Assembly: GCA_035529555.1 (NCBI GenBank)
Contig: DATKWL010000116.1
Location: 1-34,666, forward strand
Direction of reading: 5' to 3'
DNA: 34,666 bases
DNA from: Dehalococcoidia bacterium
GTDB lineage: Bacteria > Chloroflexota > Dehalococcoidia > SZUA-161
The notes under the pieces are model-generated. The model was given only the letters and a program-made list of their open reading frames with translations, did not search any database and was not told the origin of the DNA. This document shows positions 4,561 to 22,309 of this stretch, in pieces (positions within the stretch are counted from its first letter, which is position 1; each line of letters begins with the position of its first letter). The translations under genes were made by a program, and so were the position numbers.

Positions 4561-4863
4561 TTAATATTCCTCTGGAAATAGGACTGTTGTTACCGACCTG
4601 TCAGCTTCGGTAATTATCCATATTTTCGGTAAGGGTAACTTCTCATAGGCTGAAAAGAGGCGGAGATACTTGCCCAGGGCGTATTCATTTTCCCTCTTGT
4701 CTGCTTCAGACAAGTCGCCCCAGTCTCCTCTGGCGTGGCGGCCTAAGCTTTTCGTAACAAACAGGGCAAACTCGGTATTAGTAGCTACCAGGTCATTGAC
4801 CCCTCTGGTAAATACTAACTGCCCCATCTCGAATTTGCGCTCTTGCCCTGCCTCTGTATTCAT
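4561..4863 (-). CDS. small conserved protein resembling a plasmid/conjugative-element family (100 aa)
   Basis: The motifs GDWGDLSEADK and KIWIITEADRSVTTVLFPEEY at the C-terminus match, from memory, small proteins annotated as plasmid-related. GAGGAG SD. Family assignment not verifiable here. Confidence 0.6.
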   Translation of the reverse strand: MNTEAGQERKFEMGQLVFTRGVNDLVATNTEFALFVTKSLGRHARGDWGDLSEADKRENEYALGKYLRLFSAYEKLPLPKIWIITEADRSVTTVLFPEEY

Positions 4864-5593: not shown

Positions 5594-5995
5594 CTAAAAA
5601 AATGGATTCTCAATCTTAAAACGGCGGCTGCAGGCTTGGCAGTAGACAGCGTGGGCATCAGGCTCAGCTGGGGTCTCCGCACCACAGTAGGGGCAGACGG
5701 GATACCACATATCTTCCATGGTAGCCGCCTCAAGGTTTTTCTCAGTCATAGTGACTGTCTCTTCTTCGACCTCTGGCGCCCGTATTTTTTCCGCCTCCCC
5801 CAGCGCCTTGCGGGGTATTAACTTCTGCCCTACTCCTGTGCCCAACCCTATGCCGTGACTAATAAAGTGATCCTTACACATAAATGCCCACGGCCCCATG
5901 CGAGTTTTCCCGTCATAGAGGCCTGGCCAATCACAGAAATCGCACTTTGGTAGTTCCTGCACATATGCTGTGGTGCCGCTTCTTGGATTGCCCAT
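5594..5995 (-). CDS. zinc-ribbon protein (133 aa)
   Basis: Contains CDFC...CKDH near the N-terminus and CPYC...CQAC at the C-terminus. GGAGG lies 9 nt upstream of ATG 5995. Confidence 0.65.
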   Translation of the reverse strand: MGNPRSGTTAYVQELPKCDFCDWPGLYDGKTRMGPWAFMCKDHFISHGIGLGTGVGQKLIPRKALGEAEKIRAPEVEEETVTMTEKNLEAATMEDMWYPVCPYCGAETPAEPDAHAVYCQACSRRFKIENPFF

Positions 5996-6010
5996 CTTCT
6001 ACATCCTCCG

Positions 6011-6061
6011 AAAAAGAAAGGAGCAAGCATTATTTTGCTCGCCCCGTTTTTATCTATTGTA
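6011..6061 (-). promoter_or_regulatory. leader hairpin copy U1 (GGGGCGAGCA/TGCTTGCTCC + U-tract) with upstream TACAAT
   Basis: The minus strand reads TACAAT..AAAAACGGGGCGAGCAAAATAATGCTTGCTCCTTTCTTTTTCGGAGG..ATG(5995). The -35 element is weak. Confidence 0.55.
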
Positions 6062-6075
6062 AGCCCTATCTTTAT

Positions 6076-6753
6076 CTAGGTCTTAATTTCGCTCTTTCTC
6101 CTTTCTATAAATTCCCTGAGCCTTTCCCTGACCTCACTGCAGGTATCGCATTCCTCTTCCGGGATTGACCACAGCCGGCTCATGAACTCCTCGGTAACCT
6201 GGCTTGCCCTGGCCGCCGCCTGCTCCATGGTTTCAACGTCCTTTATGGCGGTGATGGAGTGCCTCAGCTCCCTCGACTGCTTGAGTGTCCAGACTGCGAG
6301 TTCCTTCTCGACTCCCTTGAGTTTGGCGATCTCATCCGGGGCAAGATCGATGCGCTCCATGACATTGAGCTCATCGAGGGCGATGCGGATTCGCCTGGTT
6401 ACCTCCGGCTGTCTGACGCCCTTATCTCGGGCAAACCTTATCCCCTCAGAAAGGGATGAGGAGGTGACAGAGAGATGGTCGCGGGAGCAGGGTAAACACG
6501 CCGTGCCTGCAGATATCGACCCCGGTGATGGGGATATCTCATCTTGACCTGGTGGCGGTTCTTTTAGCGTCTCAGGGGCTGTGGCAGGGGTTGCGGACTC
6601 CTGCAGGCCAAATTTCGCCGCGGCCTGGTCGAACTTATTGGCAACCTTGTCAATAATGTTCAGCCCAGTCTCAATGGCGTCACCCGCCTTGTCGATCACG
6701 GAGAACGCGTCCTCGGGGCGGGGCAATTTAGGCAATCTTGGCATACGAACCAT
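6076..6753 (-). CDS. hypothetical protein, N-terminal MPRLPKLPRPE motif, CLPC and CDTC pairs (225 aa)
   Basis: The track ORF 6076..6807 runs through the leader hairpin. GGGAG lies 8 nt upstream of ATG 6753. Confidence 0.6.
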   Translation of the reverse strand: MVRMPRLPKLPRPEDAFSVIDKAGDAIETGLNIIDKVANKFDQAAAKFGLQESATPATAPETLKEPPPGQDEISPSPGSISAGTACLPCSRDHLSVTSSSLSEGIRFARDKGVRQPEVTRRIRIALDELNVMERIDLAPDEIAKLKGVEKELAVWTLKQSRELRHSITAIKDVETMEQAAARASQVTEEFMSRLWSIPEEECDTCSEVRERLREFIERRKSEIKT

Positions 6754-6772
6754 GTGAGTTACTCCCGTCCTT

Positions 6773-6820
6773 AAAAAAGGGGGCAAGCCCTTCTCAGCGA
6801 AGGTCACCTGCCCCGTTTTT
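6773..6820 (-). terminator. leader/terminator hairpin copy U2
   Basis: The minus strand reads AAAAACGGGGCAGGTGACCTTCGCTGAGAAGGGCTTGCCCCCTTTTTT, directly before the SD of gene 6076..6753. Confidence 0.65.
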
Positions 6821-6842
6821 CCGGTATTTTCCTCCCCACCTT

Positions 6843-6871
6843 ATTATTGTTTCAGAGGAGGGAATTGTCAA
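6843..6871 (-). promoter_or_regulatory. sigma70-like promoter TTGACA-17-AATAAT
   Basis: The -35 element (6866-6871) overlaps the TGA stop of gene 6868..8292. The -10 element is at 6843-6848. Confidence 0.45.
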
Positions 6872-8292
6872 CCCTGGGGTCTGCCACCGAACAAGAGCTC
6901 ATCTTCAAGGTCCTTGGCCTCTCTCTCCAACACGACGGCTTCCTTCAGTCCCTTGGAAATTTTTGCCTTCTCCTGAGGGCTTTTCCTGACTGACTCCCCG
7001 CCACCGGTTAGGCCCATCAGCACTGGTTTTACATCGGACCTGATTCCGGTGACTTGGCTGTCAACGGAGGTCATTGCCTTTTCTAACAGTGCGAAGCGCC
7101 CCTCAAGTCCCCCCCGGTTTGACATATCTTTTCGCAACTCTTCTAGCCCTTTGGCCAGATTGCCCAACGCGCCTTTCACGGCATCCAGTTCTTGCTTCTG
7201 CAGCGAGTCCTTGAGCTCCCGGACCTCCGCCTGCAGCGCTCTCATCGTTTCAGAACCTTCTCCCTCACCCGTTTTTTTCAGCATCCCCAGCTGGTTCAGC
7301 TTGTCCAGCATCTCTATCTGCGTAACTCTTCCTTCCTCCCCGGTCTTTCGCAACAGCCCCAGCTGGTCCAGCTGGGCAAGCAATGCCCCCTCGCCGCCGC
7401 CATCACCCGTTTTTTTCAACATCCCCAGCTGGTTCAGCTTGTCCAGCATCTCTATCTGCGTAGTCCTTCCTTCCTCCCCGGTCTTTCGCAACAGCCCCAG
7501 CGAGTCCAGCTGGGCAAGCAATGCCCCCTCGCCGCCGCCCTCACTCTTTTTGAGCATCCCGAGCTTGTCTAACTTGTCCAGCGTGGTCATTTCATCGTCC
7601 CCTCCTCCTGTCTTGACTCCCATTGCTTCCTTCAAGCGTACTGACGCTTCTTCTCTCCTTGCCAGCTCCTCCACCGGGTCGATTGGCTCTCCCTTCTTGA
7701 GCGAGTCCTGGTACATCTGAAACACGGCAAACTCCCCGAAGCCTATCCTGCCCTTCGGGTTAAGTGTCCACGCGCCCTGCTCACCAACGATGAAGGCGGG
7801 CTCCTTTTTATCTCCGCTCTCCCTCTCCTCTATCTCTGCCAGGTCCTTCTTTACCAGCTTCTGGAGACTCTTGGCTTCGGAGAGGCTGACGGCTTTTTCG
7901 CCTTCTTTGGCCAAGCGTATCATCCCGCTTTCAGGGTCGACGGCATATTTCTCCTCCCCTTCCTCTTCTCTGGTTTCCCTTGTCTTGACGCCAGTCTCCT
8001 TTTCCATTTTCTGCCTTAGCCTTTTGGGGATGGGATGCTGGATTTCATCCGCCCAGAAGTTTACCACCTGCGTGACAAGCGACGGATGGACCCCCATCTC
8101 ACGCATCCTTGCCTCGACATCCTCTAGGTCTTCGAGCTTGCCCTTGGCACAGTGGTCGGCAACCATCGCGGCGTTCTTAATTTTGAATTTTTGGACAATG
8201 GCGGTGAACCTATCCACAATGTTGGTGAAGCTCTCTTCGCCTGTTGGTGCCTCAGCCCCCTCTTTCCCTTTTTCTTCTGTCCCGTTGCTCAT
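6868..8292 (-). CDS. acidic Glu/Lys/Gly-rich protein with tandem 46-aa repeats (474 aa)
   Basis: AAGGAGG lies 10 nt upstream of ATG 8292. Contains an in-frame 138-bp tandem repeat at 7266-7590. Confidence 0.7.
   Translation of the reverse strand: MSNGTEEKGKEGAEAPTGEESFTNIVDRFTAIVQKFKIKNAAMVADHCAKGKLEDLEDVEARMREMGVHPSLVTQVVNFWADEIQHPIPKRLRQKMEKETGVKTRETREEEGEEKYAVDPESGMIRLAKEGEKAVSLSEAKSLQKLVKKDLAEIEERESGDKKEPAFIVGEQGAWTLNPKGRIGFGEFAVFQMYQDSLKKGEPIDPVEELARREEASVRLKEAMGVKTGGGDDEMTTLDKLDKLGMLKKSEGGGEGALLAQLDSLGLLRKTGEEGRTTQIEMLDKLNQLGMLKKTGDGGGEGALLAQLDQLGLLRKTGEEGRVTQIEMLDKLNQLGMLKKTGEGEGSETMRALQAEVRELKDSLQKQELDAVKGALGNLAKGLEELRKDMSNRGGLEGRFALLEKAMTSVDSQVTGIRSDVKPVLMGLTGGGESVRKSPQEKAKISKGLKEAVVLEREAKDLEDELLFGGRPQG
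7266..7590 (-). repeat. 138-bp tandem repeat, 2 full copies plus a partial third, in frame within CDS 6868..8292
   Basis: Copies start at 7266 and 7404 (CACCCGTTTTTTTCA(G/A)CATCCCCAGCTGG...). They are nearly identical over 138 bp. A degenerate third copy starts at 7542. Confidence 0.85.
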
Positions 8293-8610: not shown

Positions 8611-8862
8611 TCACTTGTATCCTCTCTTCTTCAACATGTATTGCCTGAGATACTGCTCCCCCAGGTTGAAGCAGAAATTGCAGTAGTCGGTGAAATTGCC
8701 CCGGGGATGTCCCTCAATCAGCCCCTCTATGGTAGCGTATCTGGCAAACTTTTTGACTCGCTCATACGCATCAGCGGGCATGTAGATGTGGAGGCTGACC
8801 TTGCCGGGTTCGGTAGTTTCCGTTGCTTTTGGCTCTTCTTCGACTGTTTGCTCCTGCGACAT
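8611..8862 (-). CDS. ribbon-helix-helix-like small protein (83 aa)
   Basis: The track ORF starts at TTG 8898. GGAGG lies 8 nt upstream of ATG 8862. KVSLHIYMPADAYERVKKFA looks like an RHH strand-helix. Confidence 0.5.
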   Translation of the reverse strand: MSQEQTVEEEPKATETTEPGKVSLHIYMPADAYERVKKFARYATIEGLIEGHPRGNFTDYCNFCFNLGEQYLRQYMLKKRGYK

Positions 8863-8906
8863 CTCTAATACCTCCATCGCTTTAGCTGGGGGAAGCAACC
8901 CCCGCC

Positions 8907-8954
8907 AAAAAGGAGCGGGTCAAGTTACCTTCTCGGCGAAGGCTGCTTGCCCCG
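8907..8954 (-). terminator. leader hairpin copy U3
   Basis: The minus strand reads AACGGGGCAAGCAGCCTTCGCCGAGAAGGTAACTTGACCCGCTCCTTTTT, between the minus promoter and gene 8611..8862. Confidence 0.55.
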
Positions 8955-8964
8955 TTCTTCTGCC

Positions 8965-8993
8965 TTGACAAGTTGTAAAGTTAGATTTACAAT
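8965..8993 (+). promoter_or_regulatory. sigma70-like promoter TTGACA-17-TACAAT (rightward)
   Basis: -35 at 8965-8970 and -10 at 8988-8993. Confidence 0.6.
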
Positions 8994-9019
8994 ATACCAT
9001 ATGGGACAAAGGCTGTCAA
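8991..9019 (-). promoter_or_regulatory. sigma70-like promoter TTGACA-17-TATATT (leftward)
   Basis: -35 at 9014-9019 and -10 at 8991-8996 (reverse complement). Its -10 overlaps the rightward -10. Confidence 0.6.
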
Positions 9020-9123
9020 GCGTTACTACAGTCAATAGGACAAAGCACTCGTCGGAATTTCGACGGTTGTATGTCCGAAGGGGAGAAAGGGGGGGAATTT
9101 AGCGCTGCATTAAATTAAAAGGT

Positions 9124-9195
9124 AAAAAGGCGGTCAGTTGCTGAAACGAGAGTTTTGGCTGACCGTCTTTTCTCTCTATTCAGTAACTATCCCGC
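9124..9195 (+). repeat. 72-nt leader element copy A (bulged hairpin with GAGA tetraloop + U-tract)
   Basis: 69/72 identical to 20700-20771. Outer stem 9129-37/9159-67, inner stem 9141-47/9152-58, loop GAGA at 9148-51. Confidence 0.8.
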
Positions 9196-9240
9196 ACAAA
9201 AACGGGGCAAGCGAATCAATTGCTTGCCCTTTTCTTTTTT
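9196..9240 (+). terminator. leader hairpin copy (GGGCAAGCGA/TTGCTTGCCC + TTTTCTTTTTT)
   Basis: Stem 9205-14/9220-29, loop ATCAA. One nt different from the hairpin at 16429-16453. Confidence 0.7.
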
Positions 9241-9257
9241 CTGGCAGGAGTGGCGAC

Positions 9258-10064
9258 ATGAGAAAAATCGTAGTGGCTTCCATAAAGGGGGGTGTGGGGA
9301 AAACCACGGTGTCCTCAGGCTTGACACGAAGCCTCAAGAGGCTTGGGTCCAGAGTCGGCTACCTGGATGTGGACATTACCGCACCAACCGGTTCTGAGGC
9401 GTTTGGGCTGGAGAAGCCGCCCGACTGGGAACTGGATGCCGCTGCGGAAGGCGGCAGAGGGGCGATTGTCCCCTATAACGTAGAAGGCATACAGTTCATA
9501 ACACTCGCCTCACACTTCGGGCAAGCACCCGCCGTGCTGTGGAACGAAGAGAAAAAGATAGACGCCGCCAGGCAGCTGCTTCAGGGAGTGGTGGCCTGGC
9601 GGGACCTTGACTGGCTCATCCTGGATACCCCTCCCAGCTCGTCCGGCGAGATGCAAGCTCTTTACAAGTACATCACCGACCTTCACGGTGTGATACTCGT
9701 CTTTCAGCCCACTGACATGGCCGTCGCCGACCTTTATAGGACGCTTGATTTCCTCAAGTTCAAGAAGGTGGCGATACTCGGCCTGATAAGCAACATGAGT
9801 TATTGTATCTCGCCATCTGGGGAGAGGTTCTGGCCCTTCCTGTCGCCTGAGGTAGACCTCGCTGCCATCTGCGAGAATTTTGGGATTCCGCTTCTCGGCG
9901 AGATACCACTCACACCGGACAGAAAGGTGGTCGAGCAAGCATTTGACCGGATTGCCTCAAGGCTGGATGGGGCAAAGCCTGTCATCCTGAAGGAGGATAT
10001 CGCCAAGAGGCTGATCAGGGAAGGAAAAAGGAAGCTTCTGAAAGCGGCAGTAAGGAGACTGTAG
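9258..10064 (+). CDS. Mrp/NBP35 (ApbC)-family P-loop ATPase lacking the CxxC motif (268 aa)
   Basis: Has the deviant Walker A KGGVGKT, plus DVDITAP, LILDTPPSSSGE and LGLISNMSY. The N-terminal ORF extension 9138-9257 covers the leader hairpins and is rejected. Confidence 0.8.
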   Translation: MRKIVVASIKGGVGKTTVSSGLTRSLKRLGSRVGYLDVDITAPTGSEAFGLEKPPDWELDAAAEGGRGAIVPYNVEGIQFITLASHFGQAPAVLWNEEKKIDAARQLLQGVVAWRDLDWLILDTPPSSSGEMQALYKYITDLHGVILVFQPTDMAVADLYRTLDFLKFKKVAILGLISNMSYCISPSGERFWPFLSPEVDLAAICENFGIPLLGEIPLTPDRKVVEQAFDRIASRLDGAKPVILKEDIAKRLIREGKRKLLKAAVRRL

Positions 10065-10066
10065 CC

Positions 10067-10495
10067 ATGCGCACCGAAAAGACACTTGCTGAAGTTCTGA
10101 TTGACTTCGCCCTCGAGGACAAGGTAGCACACCAGGCGGTTATGGCCCAATTGCCCGCCGAGAAGATGGAGGCAATCACCGGCAGAAAAGGGAAACTGAT
10201 TGTCGACGGTGAGGAGGGTGGAGCATTTATCATCAGGATGACACCCTACGGCATCTATAGGGACAATAGCGAATCCGACCTCAGGAACGAGATATGGATG
10301 ACCGATACAACTTTTATCGACATAGTGATTGGGGAGCTTGAGCCGAAGACGGCGAGGGCTAGGGGCCAGGTGCTTTTCAGCGGTGACAGAAGCCTGTATG
10401 ACGCCGCCGAAATCATAGACATCTTTGAGAAGTGGATAATAACGAAGCTGAGGCCGGTTGCCCAAAAGATGATGAAAGCCGTTGGCAAGAGATAG
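10067..10495 (+). CDS. SCP2-like lipid-binding domain protein (142 aa)
   Basis: EIWMTDTTFIDIVIGELEPKTARARGQVLFSGD parallels the SCP2 pattern ([33 protein letters not shown]). AAGGAG SD. Confidence 0.55.
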   Translation: MRTEKTLAEVLIDFALEDKVAHQAVMAQLPAEKMEAITGRKGKLIVDGEEGGAFIIRMTPYGIYRDNSESDLRNEIWMTDTTFIDIVIGELEPKTARARGQVLFSGDRSLYDAAEIIDIFEKWIITKLRPVAQKMMKAVGKR

Positions 10496-10499
10496 CGGA

Positions 10500-10757
10500 A
10501 TGGCTTATGACCCGAATTGCTCGCTTTGCCGGAAAGAGCCGATTAAGGAGCAGCCTTATCATGATGAAATTTGCTGGGTTACATTCTGCCCTCTTCATGG
10601 GAATCCGATGATCGTTCTCAATGAGCATAGGCCGGAACCAACGCCGGAGGAGTGGGAGCACATAAAGGAGGTGAAGAATAAACTGTACCCAAACCTGAAA
10701 TTCAGAGGAGAGGGGATGCACTCTATGCCTCAGCATTTTCATGAACACCTTGTATAG
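10500..10757 (+). CDS. mini HIT-like protein (85 aa)
   Basis: Has an N-terminal CSLC, PMIVLNEHRPE, and a C-terminal HFHEHLV resembling the HxHxHxx histidine triad. The track ORF starts at TTG 10482. Confidence 0.45.
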   Translation: MAYDPNCSLCRKEPIKEQPYHDEICWVTFCPLHGNPMIVLNEHRPEPTPEEWEHIKEVKNKLYPNLKFRGEGMHSMPQHFHEHLV

Positions 10758-10759
10758 AA

Positions 10760-11425
10760 ATGATAGCTGAATTGCCCTTCGTTTTCTTAATCGCCGGGGC
10801 GGCCCTGGTTGGCCTGTGGATATCAAATATCCTCTTTGACCTAAAGGTCCCCCACTACGTCGCGCGTAAAATCGGCCACAGTGCCGGCGGGCTGGGCTTC
10901 CTGCTCTGCGCCCTATTATTTTCATCCGGGTGGTGGTCACTAATATTAGCCGCCATCTTTGCCGTCATGCTCGGGGGTGCCAGGTATGTCAGGCCCCAGA
11001 CTTTTCGTGGCGTGGGCGGCATCGGGCGGCCCGGGGAAGTGATGGCCGAGGTCTGGTTTCCCCTGGCTTCCTTGCCGGTTATCGGCGTGGGCTGGCTCTG
11101 GCTGGACAAGCCTTTGGTAGCCATATCCTGTCTTCTCTTTATGGCCTGGGGGGATATGATTACCGGAATTGTCCGCTCCCAGGTGTACGGCCGGCCAGTG
11201 AAGGGCCTGTGGGGTTCGGTGGCTATGCTCGCCACCTGCCTCGTGATCGCTTTGGCGTTTGTGCAACCGTTCTGGGTCGGGGCCGTGGCTGCCTTGGTGG
11301 CCACGGCTACCGAATGGGCCTGCGGGGATGTTGGGGTCATAAAATGCCTGGACGACAACCTGATGATACCGCTGACCAGCTTTGTCACTGTTTTCGGGAT
11401 ACTGGCTTTGATAGGGGAGCTATGA
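10760..11425 (+). CDS. polyprenol/phytol/dolichol kinase-like integral membrane protein (221 aa)
   Basis: Multi-TM protein. WGDMITGIVRS, KGLWGSVAM and DDNLMIPL match the CTP-dependent polyprenol kinase / CdsA superfamily pattern. Confidence 0.6.
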   Translation: MIAELPFVFLIAGAALVGLWISNILFDLKVPHYVARKIGHSAGGLGFLLCALLFSSGWWSLILAAIFAVMLGGARYVRPQTFRGVGGIGRPGEVMAEVWFPLASLPVIGVGWLWLDKPLVAISCLLFMAWGDMITGIVRSQVYGRPVKGLWGSVAMLATCLVIALAFVQPFWVGAVAALVATATEWACGDVGVIKCLDDNLMIPLTSFVTVFGILALIGEL

Positions 11426-11904
11426 GGGAACTGCTAACATTGCCCAATCCCATACTCAGGAAGAAGTGCCATCCGGTTGGCAACTTCAACAAAGAAATTA
11501 AGGAACTCATAGAAGAGTTGGCTGGTTATATGTATGCCCACCGCACCGATGAAATCGCCCCGATTGGGCTCACGGCCCCGCAACTTGGCGAATCCCTTCA
11601 GGTGATAGTCTTTTACCCCAACCCGGCCTTCCGGGAGAAGAAAGGGATAGAGGAGCTTATCAATCCGGAACTTGTCTATGCCAGAGAATCGATTACAGTT
11701 ACCGAGTCTTGCCTGAGCCTTCCGGGTAAAACATATACTCTCCAACGGGCAAAGCTGGTGAAGGTTCGAGGATACAACTTTGACGGACGCAAGAGGACAT
11801 ACAAAGCCAGGGCGCTCTTTGCCCAAATGTTTCAGCACGAACTAAATCACCTCGATGGCATACTCATAGACAGAATCGGAGAGCTTATCGTATTTAGGAA
11901 GTAG
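11422..11904 (+). CDS. def: peptide deformylase (160 aa)
   Basis: Has the three PDF motifs IGLTAPQLG, ESCLSLPG and QHELNHLDG. ATGA overlap with the upstream stop. The track ORF 10930..11904 is a spurious extension. Confidence 0.85.
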   Translation: MRELLTLPNPILRKKCHPVGNFNKEIKELIEELAGYMYAHRTDEIAPIGLTAPQLGESLQVIVFYPNPAFREKKGIEELINPELVYARESITVTESCLSLPGKTYTLQRAKLVKVRGYNFDGRKRTYKARALFAQMFQHELNHLDGILIDRIGELIVFRK

Positions 11905-11915
11905 AAGGAGAGGCA

Positions 11916-12803
11916 ATGAAAGATAAAATTAAAGCTCACATCGGGCTGGGGCGATTCTTCGCCCTGCCCATAGTTGTCTGCTCCGTCCTGCTTGGCGTTG
12001 CCCTCGTAGGTCACTGGAGCTGGCTATCTGCCATGGTGGCTCTCGGGGCCATATTCCAGATGGCCTATGCACACAGCTTTAACACGCTGCTGGATTTTTC
12101 CTGGACCGGGTTTGACAAGGGTGCTGAAGAGGAGCGGAGCCGAGGTAAGGTCTATACCCATGGCCAGCAGACGATAGCCGCCGGCATAATGTCCCCCAAA
12201 GAGGTGCTGGCCAACGGCCTTGTCTACCTTGCTATATCGGCTGTCTTCATCGGCATTGTCGCCTGGAAGGTATCACCGGTAATATGGATTATCTGGGCGA
12301 CTACAGCCTTGATGACGTTCTGGTATAGCTGGGGGAAGCTTCATTATCAGTGTGAGCTGGCACTGGGTATCGGCTTCGGCTCGCTGGCGGTGATGATGGG
12401 TATGGCCACCCAGCCGAACCCGGATTTCCTGCTGGCTTTTCTGGCGGGGATACCAATATTAATTTTGTTTGGATACGGGGCGGAGACAATGGATCAGTTC
12501 GCCGATGCGAGCGTGAATTGGAAGAGGGGATTGAGAAACTTCGGTGCCCTGGTGTGGAGAAACAAAGTCTCAATTACCATGTTCATCGTCTGGCTGCTTT
12601 GCGCCACCTTTCTCTCCCAGCTGTTTCTCATCGCCGCTGGAGTATTGCATCCGCTGACGGCACTAACACTCATCACCCTCATTCCCTTTTCTTTTTGCCT
12701 TCTCTTCCTGGAGATGAAACCCAAAGTCGGCATCATCTGGGGGCTGGGCGGAATTTATTTATATGGACTGCTACTACTGCTCGGGGAGGTACTTGGACGA
12801 TAA
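11916..12803 (+). CDS. UbiA-superfamily-like membrane prenyltransferase (295 aa)
   Basis: About 8-9 TM segments. Divergent Asp-rich motifs NTLLDFSWTGFD and DQFADASVNWKRG. GAAGGAGAGG SD. Confidence 0.55.
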   Translation: MKDKIKAHIGLGRFFALPIVVCSVLLGVALVGHWSWLSAMVALGAIFQMAYAHSFNTLLDFSWTGFDKGAEEERSRGKVYTHGQQTIAAGIMSPKEVLANGLVYLAISAVFIGIVAWKVSPVIWIIWATTALMTFWYSWGKLHYQCELALGIGFGSLAVMMGMATQPNPDFLLAFLAGIPILILFGYGAETMDQFADASVNWKRGLRNFGALVWRNKVSITMFIVWLLCATFLSQLFLIAAGVLHPLTALTLITLIPFSFCLLFLEMKPKVGIIWGLGGIYLYGLLLLLGEVLGR

Positions 12804-12826
12804 ATCCAAAGGTAAAAATAATATCC

Positions 12827-13849
12827 ATGGGCTATGCTGTCCCCGAGCATAGCTACAGTCAGGAAGAAGTATTCCAGGTGCTCGGGTACCCGCAGCGCTT
12901 CTGGAGGGTGTTCAAAGAGAGTGGGATTGAGAAGAGGCACCTTTGGGTACCGCCATGCGAAGCTAAGGAGATCAGCTGGCAGCAACAGCAGGAGATATAC
13001 AGGGTTGGGGCCGTAAAGCTTTCCCTGCAGGCGGTAAAAGAGTGTCTAGACAGCCGGAGCGCCGAGGATATCGCCTGCGTTGTCTATGGGAGTTGCACAG
13101 GATTTACCCCGGGACCGACGATAGCCCACTACCTGGCCAAAGAGTTATCTCTTGAACCCTCGACCTATTATACGAACATAATCGGGCAGGGATGCGAATC
13201 AGGCTTCCCCGGGCTCCGGAGAGCCTACGATTTTGCTGTAGCCACAGGAAAGCAAGCCCTGGTTGTCAACTGCGAGCTCTGCTCATGCACTTACTATCCC
13301 GAGCCTGCCGGCAGACCGGACCCTGAGAATCATTTTGAATGCTTGAGGAGCAATGCCATCTTTGCCGATGCTGCCTCCTGTGTTCTGGTGGGGTTTGATG
13401 AGAACCTGCGGCATCCTTCTATAATTGACATGGAGACACATACCAATACCGACTTCATCAATGAGCTCGGCTATACCTGGCGGTATGGCCGGCTAAGAGT
13501 TATGTTGTCGCGGCGGGTACCGGAACTGGCGCCACTGGTGGTTAAGCCGGCTGTCAATGCCGTGCTGCAGCGCCAGGGACTAAGTATTGACGACATAAGA
13601 TGGTGGGTGATCCACGCGGCTGGCAGCACAGTCTTGGACAACATAAGGGATGCACTTGGCATAGCCGAGGAAAAGGTAACTCTCTCGAGGGAAACATTGA
13701 GAAATTTTGGCAACACCAGCTCAACCTCGGTCGGCATTACCGGGAAGAGATTGATGGCGGGAGATATCCACCATGGAGATTATGCGGCGGTTTTGAGTAT
13801 CGGACCCGGCATGAGCGGCGGCATGACTCTCTTGCGCTTCGGAGGTTGA
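12827..13849 (+). CDS. type III polyketide synthase (chalcone-synthase-like, 340 aa)
   Basis: Cys-His-Asn triad contexts GQGCESG, WVIHAAGS and FGNTSSTS. The first ATG after the upstream stop is taken as start; the track extension overlaps the UbiA gene. Confidence 0.85.
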   Translation: MGYAVPEHSYSQEEVFQVLGYPQRFWRVFKESGIEKRHLWVPPCEAKEISWQQQQEIYRVGAVKLSLQAVKECLDSRSAEDIACVVYGSCTGFTPGPTIAHYLAKELSLEPSTYYTNIIGQGCESGFPGLRRAYDFAVATGKQALVVNCELCSCTYYPEPAGRPDPENHFECLRSNAIFADAASCVLVGFDENLRHPSIIDMETHTNTDFINELGYTWRYGRLRVMLSRRVPELAPLVVKPAVNAVLQRQGLSIDDIRWWVIHAAGSTVLDNIRDALGIAEEKVTLSRETLRNFGNTSSTSVGITGKRLMAGDIHHGDYAAVLSIGPGMSGGMTLLRFGG

Positions 13850-13850
13850 A

Positions 13851-14291
13851 GTGAGACTGCGAGATGCCCTGGCCAGCTTGCCTGATATAGACCACGAGAT
13901 TATTGACTGGTTGGCTGAAATAAATAGCTACAAGGGAGTATGCACCCTGAACTCATGTGCCGGACACAATAACCACTACAATCAACCATTTGTGATCCTG
14001 GCATTCTCCAAGGGCAGCCCCTTTCACAAGTTCTGCCACGAGATATCACCGGTGAGGTCTGATGTTAGTCCTGTGCTGACTCTGTTTTCTGACAAAGGCT
14101 GGGTAGCAGTATTTCCTCCAACAAAAGATATTAGTGTTGAACAAGGTAGCGGAGTAACACCAGAACGCTTGCCGACTGTTAGAAGGGACCTGTTTGAACG
14201 TATCATAGCAACACTGGAGAAGGTGATAGAAAGGAAGGCGAGTGTGAAGGAGATCGAGCGAAAAATAAAGGTGCTGGGGAGGGGGCTATAA
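13851..14291 (+). CDS. hypothetical protein (146 aa)
   Basis: GTG start with GGAGG 5 nt upstream. No family recognised. Confidence 0.55.
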   Translation: MRLRDALASLPDIDHEIIDWLAEINSYKGVCTLNSCAGHNNHYNQPFVILAFSKGSPFHKFCHEISPVRSDVSPVLTLFSDKGWVAVFPPTKDISVEQGSGVTPERLPTVRRDLFERIIATLEKVIERKASVKEIERKIKVLGRGL

Positions 14292-15224
14292 ATGGCAGTA
14301 TTGGTAACGGGGGGCACCGGGACGCTTGGTCGGGAGCTGGTTCACAATCTAGTCGCCAGAGGGCAAAAGGTAAGGATTCTGGCCAGAGACACTAAGAAGG
14401 CAGAGGAGCTTTTCAGCGGTTTGGAGATACTAAAGGGCAATGTCACCGAGGACAATCTTGGCCTGGTGGCTAATCCCCATGTTGATGCAGTATACCACCT
14501 GGCCGGTTTTCTTGACCTGAGTGAGAAACATCGAGACGACTTGTGGAACGTCAATGTCGCCGGCACGCAAAATGTCATCAAGCTCATGAAACTTTATGAG
14601 ATCCCCCACCTTTATTATTGTTCAACTGCATATACCCAGGGAAGGAACTGCTATGAGGAGACCAAAGCCACGGCCGAGAATTGGGTCAGGGAATCGGGCG
14701 TCAAGTACTCCATCTTTAAGCCCGGCATCATCGTCCCCAACTCCAGAACCTTCGAGATTGATAAGCCACAGCACCTTTATCTGGCGGCCAGGTTATGGGC
14801 CAGGCTCCACCGCCGGGCAGAGCCAATCAGGAAAAAATTAGAGAATAAACTTAATCTACCACCCAAGCAAATTAGCTGCCGGATAAAGGGTAACCCCAGT
14901 GCCACCTTGAACCTAGTTCAGGTTGACTGGATAGCAGAAAAAATGGCCAGCGTCCAGGACGAAGGCGTCTACATGCTCACCAGCCAAAGGCCGCTAAGGG
15001 TTTCTAAACTGCTGGAGTGGCTTGGTGAGGTCCTGTTTCTAAACCTCAAAGTGGAGCCTGAGTTCAAGCTGAGGCCACACGAGGCTTTATTTGACCGCCT
15101 GGCCAAGCCGTTCTTGGACTACGTACAAGATGATTTTTCCCGCTTTAAGCACTCATTCAATGACTGCCCTGCCATCAGCCGGGAATTTATTCAAAAGACA
15201 GTTATCAATAGTATTTTAAATTGA
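14292..15224 (+). CDS. NAD(P)-dependent extended SDR (epimerase/reductase family, 310 aa)
   Basis: VLVTGGTGTLGRELV Rossmann motif and a YEETK (YxxxK) motif. Confidence 0.8.
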   Translation: MAVLVTGGTGTLGRELVHNLVARGQKVRILARDTKKAEELFSGLEILKGNVTEDNLGLVANPHVDAVYHLAGFLDLSEKHRDDLWNVNVAGTQNVIKLMKLYEIPHLYYCSTAYTQGRNCYEETKATAENWVRESGVKYSIFKPGIIVPNSRTFEIDKPQHLYLAARLWARLHRRAEPIRKKLENKLNLPPKQISCRIKGNPSATLNLVQVDWIAEKMASVQDEGVYMLTSQRPLRVSKLLEWLGEVLFLNLKVEPEFKLRPHEALFDRLAKPFLDYVQDDFSRFKHSFNDCPAISREFIQKTVINSILN

Positions 15225-15271: not shown

Positions 15272-15595
15272 ATGGTTATGGGGCAAGGCAAAGGTCTTCT
15301 GTCAGAGCTTGAAAGGAAATTGGGATTACCGCCGCTTTCCCAGGTCGCCGAAACCTTACAGAAATTTCCCGATATGCCAAGGCTGCGCCTGATCAAAAAC
15401 ATCCTTGAGGCCTGCGAGCGCCTTTCTCGCACCGCGCCCGAGCTGGAAAAGATTGTCACCCTGGTCAACCTGATTGCCGATACCCCTACCGATAGGCTGG
15501 AGAAGCTGGAGAAGATCCTGAAGCAGGCAAACAAGCTGGTGGCACATGCCCCGAATGGGCTGCTTGAGTTTCTGTCCTCTTTGAAGGAGGATTGA
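15272..15595 (+). CDS. hypothetical helical protein (107 aa)
   Basis: AAGGAGGGG SD. First gene after the hairpin-less promoter. Confidence 0.6.
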   Translation: MVMGQGKGLLSELERKLGLPPLSQVAETLQKFPDMPRLRLIKNILEACERLSRTAPELEKIVTLVNLIADTPTDRLEKLEKILKQANKLVAHAPNGLLEFLSSLKED

Positions 15596-15804
15596 TGATA
15601 ATAAGCCCTGTATTTGCTTTGATTGTTGCCGCGGTCGGTGCCGTGGGAGCAGTGGCTGGGGCTTCAGCCCTCGCCGTAGGAAGGAAAATAGGGCCGAACC
15701 TAACGCTGGCAGACATGTTGCCTCTCGCACCCTGGGAAGGTCCGCCCTTACCTAGATTCACCAAGACGAAGCCAGAGCTTCTTGCTGAGTTGAAGACGAG
15801 GTGA
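15595..15804 (+). CDS. small membrane protein with WEGPPLPRF motif (69 aa)
   Basis: N-terminal Gly/Ala-rich TM helix. GAAGGAGG SD. TGATG coupling with the upstream stop. Confidence 0.55.
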   Translation: MIISPVFALIVAAVGAVGAVAGASALAVGRKIGPNLTLADMLPLAPWEGPPLPRFTKTKPELLAELKTR

Positions 15805-15809
15805 AAACA

Positions 15810-16013
15810 ATGGTTATTGAAATCAAAACTACAGTAGCTTGCCCTATCTGTTCTGAGCAAATACCCGGTGTAGTAGATAAAATAACAAGAACTGATGTTT
15901 TGATGGGTCATCTTGTCACAGTACATGGAAGCCAAGCAAGACCAGCCACACCATTGGAGGGACCACCCCTGCCCAGAGCGTTAGGTATTCACTGGCCATG
16001 GAGGAAGCCTTGA
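15810..16013 (+). CDS. small zinc-finger-like protein with C-terminal LEGPPLPRALGIHWPW motif (67 aa)
   Basis: Has CPIC...HLVTVH. GAGGTG lies 6 nt upstream of ATG 15810. The track ORF starts at GTG 15801. Confidence 0.5.
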   Translation: MVIEIKTTVACPICSEQIPGVVDKITRTDVLMGHLVTVHGSQARPATPLEGPPLPRALGIHWPWRKP

Positions 16014-16378
16014 TCCTGCAGTTAGTTGAATCTGACAGACCAAAGACGGTCGGTGAGAAAATCGCCGAGTTTCTGGCTCGGCCTCCCCAGCCTGTGCTCA
16101 AGTTTTACGGCGATTTCAGCACTGAGACAGCCGACGGCAAAAGGCACCTGTTCTTCGCGATAAGAAACGGGCTGCCGCTTCCCCTTTTCTATGGAATATA
16201 TGTCAGATCTAGTTATGACGGATTCATAGACTACATGGAGAAGACAGACCATATCGGCCCCTTCAGCACTGACGACTGGCGTCTGACGCTGGACACCACG
16301 GGGCCGGCTCAGGCAGAAATTCGCTTGGGGCTTCTCCCGTTTGAAATTTTAACCGACAAGTCTCAGGTTGCAGTTTAG
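15998..16378 (+). CDS. hypothetical protein (126 aa)
   Basis: ORF overlaps the upstream gene by 16 nt. No clear SD. Confidence 0.5.
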   Translation: MEEALILQLVESDRPKTVGEKIAEFLARPPQPVLKFYGDFSTETADGKRHLFFAIRNGLPLPLFYGIYVRSSYDGFIDYMEKTDHIGPFSTDDWRLTLDTTGPAQAEIRLGLLPFEILTDKSQVAV

Positions 16379-16407
16379 TTGACCTTCTCAAAATTCTAGT
16401 TTACAAT
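16379..16407 (+). promoter_or_regulatory. sigma70-like promoter TTGACC-17-TACAAT
   Basis: Starts immediately after the TAG stop at 16376-78. Confidence 0.6.
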
Positions 16408-16418
16408 TGGTGAAAAGG

Positions 16419-16464
16419 CAGAAAAATGGGGCAAGCAAATCAATTGCTTGCCCTTTTCTTTTTT
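16419..16464 (+). terminator. intrinsic-terminator-like hairpin between promoter and RBS
   Basis: Stem 16429-38/16444-53 (10 bp), loop ATCAA, then TTTTCTTTTTT at 16454-64. Confidence 0.7.
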
Positions 16465-16477
16465 GGTGAGGTTGTAA

Positions 16478-16807
16478 ATGACAGTTAGCCAAGACTGCCT
16501 AGAGAAAGCCTACCACATTTACGAAGCCCATGAATGTGCCCACGCTGCATCGAGGGAAGCACTAAGCCGGGATAAAAAGTCTGCCGAGATGTATTTGAAC
16601 CTGATAAATCAGCACTTATATGCCGCGGATGCTTCACTTTCACCGGAGACTAAAATGGAATTGAATCGTGATCTGGCAGAAGCAAGAAAGTTGATTTACC
16701 AGGATGATAAAAATGCCGTCTTCTCGCTAGGTCGCTTTCTGGATAAGACGAAGGAATTGATGTTTGAAGTCGCCGTGGCCTGCGAGTGCCGGAAAGGAGG
16801 GCAATGA
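16478..16807 (+). CDS. helical Cys-motif paralog (109 aa, C-terminal ACECR)
   Basis: GGTGAGG lies 6 nt upstream. Same Cys pattern as three minus-strand genes. Confidence 0.6.
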   Translation: MTVSQDCLEKAYHIYEAHECAHAASREALSRDKKSAEMYLNLINQHLYAADASLSPETKMELNRDLAEARKLIYQDDKNAVFSLGRFLDKTKELMFEVAVACECRKGGQ

Positions 16808-20658: not shown

Positions 20659-20688
20659 TTGACAAATTTCTGTCCCTGTGTTTAGAAT
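20659..20688 (+). promoter_or_regulatory. sigma70-like promoter TTGACA-18-TAGAAT with an AT-rich upstream tract
   Basis: -35 at 20659-64 and -10 at 20683-88. The sequence AAAAATAAACTAAATAAAAAC lies upstream. Confidence 0.6.
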
Positions 20689-20699
20689 TGTAGCGGGAT

Positions 20700-20771
20700 A
20701 AAAAGGCGGTCAGTTGCTGAGACGAGAGTTTTGGCTGACCGCCTTTTCTCTTTATTCAGTAACTATCCCGC
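20700..20771 (+). repeat. 72-nt leader element copy B
   Basis: Outer stem 20705-13/20735-43, inner stem 20717-23/20728-34, loop GAGA at 20724-27, followed by TTTTCTCTTT. Confidence 0.8.
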
Positions 20772-20777: not shown

Positions 20778-20835
20778 AAAAACGGGGCAAGCAACCTTCC
20801 CCGGAAGGTTTGAACGGCTTGCCCCGTTCCTTTTT
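20778..20835 (+). terminator. leader hairpin copy (CGGGGCAAGC ... GCTTGCCCCG with inner ACCTTC/GAAGGT stem + U-tract)
   Basis: Outer stem 20783-92/20817-26, followed by TTCCTTTTT. Confidence 0.65.
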
Positions 20836-20872
20836 GGTGAGGGTTGCTTCCCCAGAGTAAAAGGAGGGTGAC

Positions 20873-21187
20873 ATGCCTAATAAGCTTCCGGAGCCAACAA
20901 CTATTATTAGTGCCTTAGGAGGCGGAGCTATTGATCTGGCCGAGGGGCCGGTAATAGCTGCCATCAACACCGCCGGAGTCGCCCAGGAATTTGCCAATAA
21001 TGTCAAAGGTAACCTTGACAACCTCAAGAAGGGGATACCCCAAGACCCGTCAGCTATACCTGATTTTGCGGTGAGGGCAGTCACGCACACGATTTCTGAC
21101 GGCTTGGGTTTCTTCGAGGGCCTCGGCAAAGCGGCAACGCAAACTTTTGAAAGTGTCCGCGGTGAGCTCAGGAGAATCACAGGTTAA
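20873..21187 (+). CDS. hypothetical protein, N-terminal MPNKLPEP (104 aa)
   Basis: AAAAGGAGGG SD. First gene after the double-hairpin leader. Confidence 0.6.
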   Translation: MPNKLPEPTTIISALGGGAIDLAEGPVIAAINTAGVAQEFANNVKGNLDNLKKGIPQDPSAIPDFAVRAVTHTISDGLGFFEGLGKAATQTFESVRGELRRITG

Positions 21188-21197
21188 GGAGAGGAAT

Positions 21198-21527
21198 ATG
21201 CCGTACAAGAATCCAACAGAATTATTGGTTGACGCAACCAAGTTGCCAGCGGCGATAGAGGCGAAGCTGCCCGCGGGCGCGCCCAAACTTTCGACAACGT
21301 TGGTGAACATAGCCACCAAGCTTCCCAAGGTTCCCGATTTCCCGATGGAGCTTCCCGACCTGCCGGCGCCGCCAGAGCTGCCCGAACTGCCGGCACCCCC
21401 TGGAGCTGAGCTGCGGCGCTATGTCACCGGTGTCGAGGTGGCGCCAGTGGTGGGTGCGGCTGTGGTTGCGCCAACGCCAGCGCCAGTACCCGCCAGACGG
21501 GGATTGGTTCCCTTTGTCTATGAATAA
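21198..21527 (+). CDS. proline-rich KLP/ELP-repeat protein (109 aa)
   Basis: AAGGAGAGG SD upstream of ATG 21198. The track ORF 21147 extension overlaps the previous gene. Confidence 0.55.
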   Translation: MPYKNPTELLVDATKLPAAIEAKLPAGAPKLSTTLVNIATKLPKVPDFPMELPDLPAPPELPELPAPPGAELRRYVTGVEVAPVVGAAVVAPTPAPVPARRGLVPFVYE

Positions 21528-21550
21528 ATTTAGGAGGAGGACATAGGAAA

Positions 21551-22309
21551 ATGGCTGAAATTGTTGGGCCAGCATTTGCAAAACTAAATCTGATGGCAGG
21601 CACCGCCAGACTTCTGGAGCAAGTAGACCTAAAGCCAGACGACTTAATGGTCTTCAATAGAGACTTCGACCTGCTTGTGAAGGAGCTGTCAAAGGTTGAC
21701 CCTGAGTTGGGGCACAATCTGGCTGCCGAAAAAGAGTTTTACCTCGGTGTCAACCAGATAGCCAAAGGCTACTTCAACATGAAGCCCTTTGGCGGATTAA
21801 AGTCTTCAACCGGGCAATATGGTATGAACATCATTTCGCCCCAGAATCTGAAGACTGATGCAGCCGGCGCAACCCGCCGATATTTGAGCTGGGCGCAGAC
21901 GCTTAGCGTCACCATTAGCGGCACCCATCAGTTTATACTTGGGACTTCTGCTACTGCAGAGTGCTATGCCTCTGCTGAAAGTGAGAAGAAGGAAGTTATT
22001 GGCTTTCACGCCTTCCTCAGCTATAAGCCGGACCCGAAGCTCGTTCTGCTCCACTTGGAAATCAATGATTACCCCTATCCTACCTGGAATGTGGAGCCAT
22101 ATGCCAAGATTACCAAGGCCGATAAGCTATTCAAGATTCTGCCTATTCCCGGTCGAGTAATCCTGCATCCGGGTGGCAAGTTCGCCCTTCAGGGTTTCTT
22201 CGACATCGGCAGCAGCATGGCCGCCGCGGTTTCTGTTGACGTTGAGATATGTCCATTTGGCCTTTGCTTTGCCGAATACGACCAGTTTGAATCCAGCAAC
22301 ATACACTAA
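21551..22309 (+). CDS. hypothetical protein, candidate major structural subunit (252 aa)
   Basis: AGGAGGAGG SD. Largest ORF of the module. No family recognisable by eye. Confidence 0.6.
   Translation: MAEIVGPAFAKLNLMAGTARLLEQVDLKPDDLMVFNRDFDLLVKELSKVDPELGHNLAAEKEFYLGVNQIAKGYFNMKPFGGLKSSTGQYGMNIISPQNLKTDAAGATRRYLSWAQTLSVTISGTHQFILGTSATAECYASAESEKKEVIGFHAFLSYKPDPKLVLLHLEINDYPYPTWNVEPYAKITKADKLFKILPIPGRVILHPGGKFALQGFFDIGSSMAAAVSVDVEICPFGLCFAEYDQFESSNIH

Follow-up and report, generated by a model that had tools for sequence, protein, structure and literature searches.

Positions 9000–9257 of a 34,666-nt contig assigned to a Dehalococcoidia bacterium (DATKWL010000116.1; the whole stretch is referred to below as the window) are, as far as their sequence tells, the transcribed 5′ leader of an operon encoding an ATPase, a UbiA prenyltransferase and a type III polyketide synthase (PKS) in an uncultivated virus-like or integrative element. 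Between a consensus promoter and the first start codon, this leader carries two conserved elements, a 73-nt RNA module (el1) and a terminator-shaped hairpin module with a GGGGCAAGC stem (hp2). The hairpins may serve as promoter-proximal attenuators with factor-dependent read-through, which is the reading favoured here, tentatively and with somewhat less than even confidence. The relatives used for comparison are metagenome loci (labelled L008, L022 and so on) whose first-gene ATPases are 50–95% identical to that of the window, and promoter matches are given as the number of matching hexamer positions out of 12.

Organization of the leader

The original prediction had placed the −10 element of a rightward promoter at 8988–8993 and a transcription start near 9000, and a consensus promoter matching at 11/12 positions was found there (Table 1). 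In an alignment of the leader from promoter to ATG, which covers 10 relatives with ATPase identities of 80–91% (11 aligned ATPase leaders in all), the −35 hexamer TTGACA of this promoter is invariant and its −10 hexamer follows TAnAAT, and the CTGTCAAG of the leftward promoter is also invariant. The −10 hexamers of the promoters at 8965 (+) and 9019 (−) overlap, so that the two would form a back-to-back switch. Further downstream, the predicted 72-nt element at 9124–9195 is present, although its boundaries had to be corrected to 73 nt (9123–9195), and the predicted hairpin with its T-run, Shine-Dalgarno (SD) sequence and ATG at 9258 all follow, with the start of the hairpin moved to 9204. The arms GGGGCAAGCGA/TTGCTTGCCCT of this hairpin lie at 9204–9230 and the T-run TTTTCTTTTTT at 9230–9240; its 11 pairs are followed by UUUUCUUUUUU, which gives it the G+C-rich stem-loop and U-tract of an intrinsic terminator; folded as RNA, it reaches −18 kcal/mol (z = −3.8). 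The terminator-shaped hairpins come after the promoter and before the operon's first start codon, which is the position of an attenuator. A promoter bypassing the hairpins at 9240–9258, named in the original prediction as a finding that would speak against it, was looked for, and a lenient scan revealed no site of at least 8/12 in 9033–9258 and no promoter immediately upstream of el1 copy 1. All plausible genes from 8862 down to 267 lie on the minus strand, in agreement with the claim that no co-directional gene precedes the leader, and the further claim that the hairpins are leader elements rather than the end of a preceding operon is upheld by the recurrent order of promoter, hairpin, SD and start codon, by the synteny of the leader in relatives, by compensatory changes and by sense-strand G·U pairing.

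Synteny of the 10 aligned relatives covers the leader from end to end, and conservation extends over the promoter, the operator-like boxes, the divergent −35, a block rich in A/T, both modules (with the U-run of hp2) and the SD; in seven near-identical contigs from soil and sediment metagenomes it is 100% identical to that of the window. The U-run of hp2 is present in 11/11 aligned ATPase leaders, its exact sequence varying. The conserved ATAGGACAAAG-type boxes are located between and beside the divergent promoters and flank a hairpin at 9049–9066 that is itself non-conserved. In L008 and L022 all three boxes change jointly, TAGCCC/GGGCTA replacing TAGGAC/GTCC, as would be expected of operator sites tracking the specificity of a repressor; they are putative binding sites. 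The first leftward gene pair encodes a ribbon-helix-helix-like protein (recognized by sequence only, with no Pfam match) and a winged-helix protein (a weak HTH_Crp_2 match).

Conservation and structure of hp2

In the sense orientation, hp2 follows the consensus AAAAAC-GGGGCAAGC-loop-GCTTGCCCC-GTT-CCTTTTT with an SD 0–10 nt later, the stem consisting of 10–12 G+C-rich pairs followed by 5–10 U and its conserved 5′ arm reading AAAAACGGGGCAAGC. It is always in sense, 19–67 nt from the start codon, with an arm spacing of 5–26 nt. In the window, hp2 occurs in at least six leaders and el1 only in the leaders at 9123 and 20699, while the order of promoter, hairpin(s), SD and start codon is found behind five promoters (8965, 9019(−), 16379, 20659, and 6871(−)). 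The sequence ACGGGGCAAGC with at most one mismatch occurs seven times against 0.72 expected by chance, each copy just upstream of a gene and in the orientation of that gene. The hairpin at 9204 is of a short-loop type, with its closest copy at 16418–16464 (94% over 47 nt), and the hairpin at 20784 is of a long type with an inner hairpin; the claim that the leaders of the operons at 9258 and 20873 contain the same two hairpins consequently stands for the first (el1), but the second shares the stem GGGGCAAGC/GCTTGCCC only. Similarly, the claim that the hairpins tie 9258–15224 to 20873–24194 is sustained by the 73-nt element but not by the GGGGCAAGC hairpin, which also precedes 16478, 8862(−), 6753(−), and 5995(−).

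For 26 of the 30 sense copies of hp2 in relatives, a promoter matching at 10/12 or better lies in the 260 nt upstream, compared with 139 of 2000 random positions (7%) in the same loci, and the stems are kept in relatives whose ATPase is merely 50–55% identical. The stem of L034 carries a compensated change (GGGGTAAGC/GCTTACCCC). Read on the sense strand, the non-Watson-Crick positions of the full set are 19 G·U and 11 A·C, and in the aligned ATPase leaders there are 10 G·U and no A·C; the compensatory changes and the sense-strand G·U excess point to a structure in RNA. An ordinary terminator at 24199–24250 (AGCCTTGGC...GCCAAGGCT, then six T) follows the genes at 20873–24194, and in L286 (~12640–12675) a hairpin of unrelated sequence takes its place. 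Plain terminators here lose their sequence and hp2 keeps it, which is the main argument that hp2 is either read sequence-specifically or kept uniform for a shared function.

The inner hairpin of long-type hp2 (AACCTTC-GCTGAGA-GAAGGTT) is always sense-oriented. Just before the SD, 9 of the 16 long-type leaders contain GGGTTGCTTCCCC, whose pairing with the hp2 5′ arm is worth −16 to −28 kcal/mol, a value equalled by no more than 6 of 1000 shuffles; in the window copy (20841–20853) the value is −26.7 kcal/mol and 0/1000 shuffles equal it, and the feature is also present in L020, L281, L283, L285, and L286. The segment covaries in L279 (AGCC/GGCU) and contains an anti-SD-like CUUCC, which could pair with the GGAGG of the SD, a function suggested by complementarity. 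The loops of short-type hp2 share an (A/G)ATAAT-like motif (AAAATAAT, AGAATAAT, AATATAAT, GATAAT, and TGATAAT, from window 6034–6027(−), L008 ~9961, L283 ~7120, L015, L034, and L011), which could be a recognition loop. A promoter within the loop, also suggested by this motif, was dropped because no −35 accompanies it.

Among distant relatives, L015, L034, and L020 have hp2 between promoter and ATG, and L225, L013, L016–L019, L021, L023, and L230 have no hairpin and a consensus promoter abutting the start codon. In the hp2-less L225 (9858–10001), L013, L016, L017, L019, L023, and L230, the −10 ends ~7–10 nt before the ATPase start and there is no SD, which suggests leaderless mRNAs for the same operon. 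Comparison of L015 with L023 suggests that hp2, U-run and SD behave as one insertable cassette. Scanning IMG/VR with a 14-mer of hp2 gave at least 120 loci, almost all of them chance matches, with L128 as the sole true relative, and a 21-mer of el1 had no match there.

Alternative folds of el1

The 5′ part of el1, AAAAGGCGG(N)TAGC (5′ arm AAAAGGCGGUCAGUUGC), is conserved throughout the relatives. In most ATPase leaders el1 has a short form, a bulged hairpin with a P1 of 3–5 bp, a P2 of GCYGAAAC/GUUUCRGC, a loop of UUCG, UCUC, or AUUU and no U-run, and hp2 follows 5–8 nt downstream. A long form occurs in both window copies, both L281 copies, L020, L024, L285, and L286, and has one 5′ arm with two alternative 3′ partners. 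Pairing with the proximal partner gives a T fold, a 12+8-bp hairpin of −24 to −38 kcal/mol followed by a U-run (UUUUCUCU, or UUUUCUCUCU), and pairing with the distal partner (9179–9188 and 9192–9195 in the window) gives a rod that restores the architecture of the short form. Over the conserved stem the loops are diverse (GAGA, UCUC, UUCG, AUUU, GUAA, and GUGA).

There is evidence that both helices are real and that selection acts on the sense RNA. In the T-fold alignment 93% of the cells are paired, six pairs have changes on both sides, 0/500 shuffles reach the covariation score and slid controls pair at 39–57%; its proximal duplexes have energies of −22 to −38 kcal/mol, with 0–4 of 2000 shuffles as good. 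The rod fold was assessed by the duplex energy of each sequence against shuffles, because the distal arms are three columns out of register in the MAFFT alignment (L020, L024, and L285). These distal duplexes reach −14 to −23 kcal/mol, with 0–4/2000 shuffles as good in 5/6 variants and 27/2000 in L024, and the distal arms vary with the variant so as to match their own 5′ arm (AGUUGCUGAA/UUCAGUAACU, GGUAGCAGCU/GGCUGCUACC, and GGGUAAUUGCUGA/UCAGCAAUUACCC). Two distal-arm substitutions in L286 are retained as G·U and pair in sense RNA only. The minimum-energy structure of copy 1 is the rod fold (−27.5 kcal/mol, z = −5.0) and that of copy 2 with a 5′ extension is the T fold (−34.2 kcal/mol, z = −5.5); copy 2 has a G-C in place of a G·U at one stem pair, and GCGGGAT (20693–20699) in its extension is pairable with ATCCCGC (20765–20771). 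A covariance model of the long form matched family loci only, on the sense strand, with no match in ~700 kb of unrelated control contigs.

Since el1 is confined to the leaders at 9123 and 20699, it would give these two long operons an additional control step in common. Any specific co-regulation of the kind put forward in the original prediction would run through el1, and the cis-regulatory mechanism is likewise a putative one. Before the 20873-type operon, el1 plus hp2 is found in the window, L285, and L286, and hp2 alone in L283. In L281 an identical second el1 plus hp2 lies behind the promoter equivalent to the hairpin-free promoter at 15221 of the window; from such sequence comparisons, the pair apparently moves between promoters.

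Proposed attenuation and competing explanations

If the hairpins are attenuators, el1 and hp2 would work in the nascent sense transcript as intrinsic terminators close to the promoter, restraining transcription from the consensus promoters of the element, and read-through would depend on a factor or on a change to RNA polymerase that the RNA brings about by itself. Termination, the control of read-through and the existence of a factor are what this reading would add to the observed position, strand, conservation and base-pair covariation of the hairpins. The factor would recognize the conserved 5′ arms of el1 and hp2; hp2 would gate nearly every operon. The near-consensus promoters make some brake plausible, and AAAAGGCGGGUAGC in el1 and AAAACGGGGCAAGC in hp2 match at 10/14 positions, which, together with the conservation of the 5′ arms, suggests a common reader.

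Several observations weigh against attenuation. Scans of ~60 open reading frames (ORFs), among them Pfam scans of the window ORFs, turned up no antiterminator family, be it a NusG paralogue, Q, N or another. No antiterminator structure forming before the 3′ arm of the terminator was found, nor any upstream competitor. Both alternative partners lie 3′ of the U-runs (el1 9179–9195; hp2 20841–20853), and being made downstream of them, they cannot prevent termination on the first passage of the polymerase and could act on read-through RNA only, where a late 3′ arm might melt out the hairpin, make the SD accessible or give rise to a site for processing. The tail of long-type hp2, CCCCGUUCCUUUUU, is a less than ideal U-tract. 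Moreover, the hairpin-free relatives run the same operon from a promoter abutting the ATG, the hp2 stem of several relatives starts so close to the −10 that it would form a 5′-terminal hairpin like those of mRNA stabilizers, and the constant closeness of hp2 to the SD equally fits a translation or stability cassette. A search for a trans-acting factor by co-occurrence, comparing hp2-positive with hp2-negative relatives, gave two positive-specific families (126 aa at 15998–16378 and 100 aa at 4561–4863), and was rejected as evidence because the hp2-negative loci are also the most divergent.

A more far-reaching form of attenuation, which is rather unlikely, is a genome-wide hairpin-recognition regulon in which a factor unlike N, Q, or NusG would read the 5′ arms behind every consensus promoter, or el1 would act on the polymerase in the manner of HK022 put, and the spare 3′ arm would then refold the leader, removing the terminator and freeing the SD. 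Such a regulon, if true, would amount to a transcription and translation switch of a new kind, in a virus-like lineage that is uncharted and carries lipid/polyketide genes. If the favoured attenuation reading is right, an uncultivated family of elements from subsurface and sediment communities, some members of which are binned with Dehalococcoidia, would run all its operons by a few reusable RNA leader modules, and el1 would link the lipid/polyketide operon to a module of conserved unknown, possibly structural, proteins.

The hairpin-free relatives, the 5′-terminal stems and the closeness of hp2 to the SD favour the strongest competitor of attenuation, in which the hairpins would belong to a cassette of the 5′ untranslated region that serves mRNA stability and translation; it is a serious contender but on balance unlikely. 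In this explanation hp2 (and el1) would form a protective hairpin near the 5′ end, the U-rich tract and SD would be a strong loading site for ribosomes, termination would be incidental or weak, and no dedicated factor would be involved. The 5′ stem-loops of ompA, T7 gene 10, and ermC mRNAs are 5′-terminal stabilizers, accompanied by U-rich translational enhancers, and the leaders described here resemble them in having a hairpin near the 5′ end, a U-rich tract, an SD and an AUG, reused in many transcripts of one genome. In L285, L011, L015, and L034 the hp2 stem begins 9–12 nt after the −10 and would thus be 5′-terminal, and the comparison of hp2-bearing with hp2-less relatives gives hp2 and SD the look of one inserted unit. 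However, a U-run abutting a G+C-rich stem is not needed for stability and is expected to terminate bacterial RNA polymerase; the hairpin has an A-run before it and, at 9204, is ~200 nt away from the 5′ end; and nothing in this explanation accounts for the conserved sequence of the stem, for el1 or for the duplicated 3′ arms with their alternative pairings. Even if the cassette served stability and translation alone, it would be a small, portable device for gene expression, drawn from a lineage about which little is known.

Less probable is that the hairpins are RNA-processing sites, where RNase III, or a hairpin-specific endonuclease encoded by the element, would cleave the long duplexes (the T or rod fold of el1, and the hp2 5′ arm paired with its distal partner) to mature or inactivate the mRNAs, and where refolding after read-through would make or remove a site as in lambda sib retroregulation. 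Duplexes of 20–25 bp are available (el1 at −27 to −34 kcal/mol and the leftward leader at −46.5 kcal/mol), read-through RNA is the only RNA in which the alternative folds exist, and a conserved stem sequence would suit a sequence-specific nuclease; however, no nuclease gene was recognized, the 11-bp stems of short-type hp2 are too short for RNase III, and U-runs would be unneeded. Slightly less probable still are plain bidirectional terminators that would insulate the promoters from stray antisense or read-in transcription at the cost of some sense attenuation. The AAAAAC and T-run flanking hp2 give it the look of a terminator on both strands, and one copy stands on each side of the divergent promoter pair (8956–8905 and 9198–9240), but the orientation strictly follows that of the gene behind the hairpin, with the inner loop GCUGAGA, the tail GUUCCUUUUU and the distal partner never in antisense, the stem sequence is conserved, unlike that of the ordinary terminator at 24199, and there are no minus-strand genes to the right of 9257.

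Independent small RNA genes are a still fainter prospect: the promoter at 20659 would yield a trans-acting RNA of ~55 nt or 140 nt ending at the U-run of el1 or hp2, and the 9123 copy would be the same RNA embedded in a leader. This promoter lies ~5 nt before el1 copy 2, two terminator-like ends follow, and the two el1 copies are near-identical; lambda 6S RNA is a comparable case. On the other hand, no separate promoter for the 20873 operon lies past the hairpins, which means that read-through must occur, no target complementarity was found outside the leaders, and el1 lies deep inside the leader in most relatives. Finally, sites acting as DNA (palindromic operators, centromere-like sites for a ParA-type ATPase or ParB, or cruciforms) are very improbable, for although the palindromes are multi-copy and conserved, the first gene encodes a ParA-superfamily ATPase and one relative has a ParB-like protein, the arm spacing is variable, G·U is tolerated on the sense strand only, short-form el1 is not a DNA palindrome and the ATPase belongs to the Mrp/NBP35 family (PF10609) rather than to classical partition ParA.

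Comparison with known systems

Rfam gave 0 matches in the window, the best leader matches, with E values no lower than 0.12, falling well short of the cut-offs, and only tRNA in 12 relatives. A preQ1-I riboswitch, suggested by CUAUAAAAAAC in L008, was dropped because it has no Rfam match. Leader hairpins and leader terminator modules are known in kind, and what looks unusual here is a conserved terminator stem shared across the element and the layout of one 5′ arm and two 3′ arms split by a U-run. The conserved 5′ arms would offer a handle for finding a regulator, and el1 and hp2 would be two new structured-RNA families for Rfam-type catalogues.

In the LoaP system, the dfn and mln polyketide operons of Bacillus velezensis have a small hairpin, nearly identical in both leaders, upstream of a NusA-dependent leader terminator (PMC12691694). 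The leaders of the window likewise place a small conserved hairpin in two long biosynthetic operon leaders before an intrinsic terminator and the first gene, and this tested precedent counts for the attenuation reading. The UNCG loop of the LoaP type is matched by the UUCG of el1 in L008, L011, L283, and L022, but the loop is GAGA in the window and UCUC or AUUU elsewhere and is thus not conserved; el1 is also longer, bulged and bistable, and the terminator hairpin is itself conserved in sequence and reused at operons without el1. No loaP gene beside the cluster and no NusG paralogue were found in scans of the window ORFs. The RfaH ops element, with the 12-nt consensus GGCGGTAGCGTG, also occurs in leaders of long, horizontally acquired operons (PMC5995543). 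The el1 5′ arm matches it at 8/12 positions in the window (GGCGGTCAGTTG, 9129–9140) and at 9/12 in L008 and L011 (GGCGGTAGCCGA) and similarly lies in leaders of long biosynthetic operons. Unlike ops, it has an extra base in most relatives (GGCGGGTAGC) and its GGCGGT(C)AG segment lies in a covarying RNA stem; neither an RfaH-like gene nor a NusG or KOW match was found in Pfam scans of the window ORFs, and the resemblance is a lead that may be due to chance.

Lambdoid phages control long operons by late and early antitermination, with Q acting on the PR′–6S RNA–tR′ arrangement and N acting through nutL and nutR. The leaders of the window resemble these in the sequence of strong promoter, immediate terminator and long mobile-element operon, with a cis element present twice per genome in two leaders. 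Unlike N/nut, they contain neither a boxA (CGCUCUUA-like) nor a boxB hairpin with its conserved GNRA-like loop, apart from a CUCUUUA run in the U-tract of copy 2 (20748–20754) that is absent from short-form el1, and the variable loop of the el1 hairpin makes boxB-style recognition unlikely; no Q or N homologue was found among the scanned ORFs. The putL and putR RNAs of HK022 are factor-independent processive antitermination elements, each of two separate stem-loops. In el1 there is likewise a structured RNA of ~70 nt in two copies just past two promoters of one mobile element and followed by terminators, but el1 is a single bulged hairpin with an alternative rod fold and has no sequence similarity to put, and the likeness is one of copy number, size and position. 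Like REP/BIME (repetitive extragenic palindromes and bacterial interspersed mosaic elements), hp2 is multi-copy and intergenic; unlike them, typically 3′ of genes and in either orientation, it is always 5′ of a gene, in sense and beside the SD.

Leaders in the window

The features of the 9000–9257 leader and of the other leaders in the window are given in Table 1. The fold of the leftward-operon leader has an energy of −46.5 kcal/mol (z = −4.9), and the hp2-like hairpin upstream of 6753(−) has orthologous copies in L008, L229, and L283.

Table 1. Positions of the leader features in the window (+, forward strand; −, reverse strand).
Feature	Position	Strand	Description
Rightward sigma-70-type promoter	8965–8993	+	TTGACA 8965–8970, 17-nt spacer, TACAAT 8988–8993; 11/12; predicted start ~9000
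Leftward promoter	8991–9019	−	TTGACA, 17-nt spacer, TATATT; −10 overlaps rightward −10
Operator-like boxes	9001–9081		ATGGGACAAAG 9001–9011; ATAGGACAAAG 9035–9045; inverted ATGTCCGAAGG 9071–9081
el1 copy 1	9123–9195	+	5′ arm 9125–9147; proximal 3′ arm 9152–9171; U-run 9168–9177; distal 3′ arm 9179–9188 and 9192–9195
hp2, short type	9198–9240	+	AAAAAC, stem GGGGCAAGC...GCTTGCCC, TTTTCTTTTTT; shape of an intrinsic terminator
SD and start codon	9243–9260	+	SD GGCAGGAG 9243–9250; ATG 9258 of the ATPase, first gene of operon 9258–15224
Promoter of 20873 operon	20659–20688	+	TTGACA, 18-nt spacer, TAGAAT; el1 copy 2 begins ~5 nt past predicted start
el1 copy 2	20699–20771	+	96% identical to copy 1 over 73 nt, 3 differences
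hp2, long type	20778–20835	+	AAAAAC-GGGGCAAGC, inner hairpin AACCTTCC..GGAAGGTT, TGAACG-GCTTGCCCCGTT-CCTTTTT
hp2 distal partner GGGTTGCTTCCCC	20841–20853	+	Complementary to hp2 5′ arm 20784–20797; 8 nt before SD 20861–20868; ATG 20873
Third leader	16379–16480	+	TTGACC, 17-nt spacer, TACAAT (16379–16407); short hp2 16428–16454, T-run to 16464; SD GGTGAGG; ATG 16478
Leftward-operon leader	8860–8961	−	Long hp2 with degenerate proximal arm; 5′ arm 8956–8945; distal partner 8903–8889; SD 8875–8870; ATG 8862
Leader of 6753 gene	6753–6871	−	TTGACA, 17-nt spacer, AATAAT (6871–6843); hp2-like long hairpin 6820–6773; start 6753
Intercistronic hp2, short type	5993–6051	−	Hairpin 6051–6011 between two cistrons; no good promoter upstream; then SD, ATG 5995

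Genes, relatives and identity of the element

The ORF at 9258 encodes an Mrp/NBP35 ParA-type P-loop ATPase (PF10609, E = 1e-42) with a Walker A motif from residue 10, and the genes after it encode an SCP2-like protein, a membrane protein, a peptide deformylase, a UbiA prenyltransferase, a type III PKS and an NAD-dependent reductase/epimerase; with the prenyltransferase and the PKS among its products, the label of lipid/polyketide operon given originally is a reasonable one. Homologues of the ATPase, graded from 95% to 50% identity, come solely from metagenomes and a few bins of metagenome-assembled genomes (MAGs) named Dehalococcoidales, Dehalococcoidia, or Patescibacteria. A scan of GTDB genomes gave one relative, a 5.4-kb contig of a Dehalococcoidia MAG; another is an IMG/VR viral contig of 44.9 kb, and one relative encodes an 811-aa ParB-like protein. 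The biosynthetic module (ATPase, UbiA and type III PKS), a large Ig-repeat/InlB-repeat protein and the genes at 20873–24194 remain syntenic in relatives, so the window belongs to one genetic entity, as had been proposed, and the entity fits a temperate virus or an integrative plasmid-like element. A tyrosine integrase adjoins tRNA-Met in L279 (1770–2763), and an IS605 OrfB/TnpB (Cas12f-like) gene lies inside the biosynthetic operon in L282 (5689–6804).

The description of the 20873–24194 module as particle-like is left unproven by these comparisons. PHROGs gave nothing on the window proteins apart from one weak, and not useful, scaffold-protein match. The 252-aa protein of this module (21551–22309) has more than 120 homologues at 44% identity or above, all from subsurface or sediment metagenomes, with no tblastn match in GenBank phages or PLSDB plasmids; the leader had no blastn match in GenBank phages. 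A confident AlphaFold model of this protein (predicted local distance difference test 84) shows a helical arm and a beta-sandwich, and Foldseek returned weak, generic jelly-roll matches (infectious bursal disease virus VP2 and SPV1 VP4; E ~1e-3, template modelling scores of 0.2–0.3), because of which it is not called a capsid protein.

Further downstream, positions 24467–33800 encode a run of sugar/cofactor-type enzymes: a cytidylyltransferase-PfkB fusion, a radical SAM/SPASM enzyme, a GDP-mannose-dehydratase-like enzyme, a thiamine pyrophosphate enzyme, a short-chain dehydrogenase/reductase, two methyltransferases and a Zn-dependent alcohol dehydrogenase. A virus-like element would not usually carry such genes. 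The 835-aa protein at 17192–19699 has internal repeats of ~125 aa (DNA repeats 18291–19438) and a C-terminal InlB B-repeat domain, and its length in relatives ranges from 654 to 913 aa. Similarly, the gene at 6868–8292(−), with a 474-aa product, contains a 138-nt (46-aa) tandem repeat at 7257–7582; near-identical strains encode 427, 428, or 474 aa, and the copy number of this repeat therefore varies within the population. The motif EGPPLPRxxxx(K/R)WPW recurs in several small ORFs, in most cases at their C-terminal end: those at 654–1085(−), 15592–15804(+), and 15801–16013(+) in the window, and others in L225 (~18030–18130) and L285 (~6330–6430). Its PPLPR resembles the SH3-ligand pattern PxxPxR.

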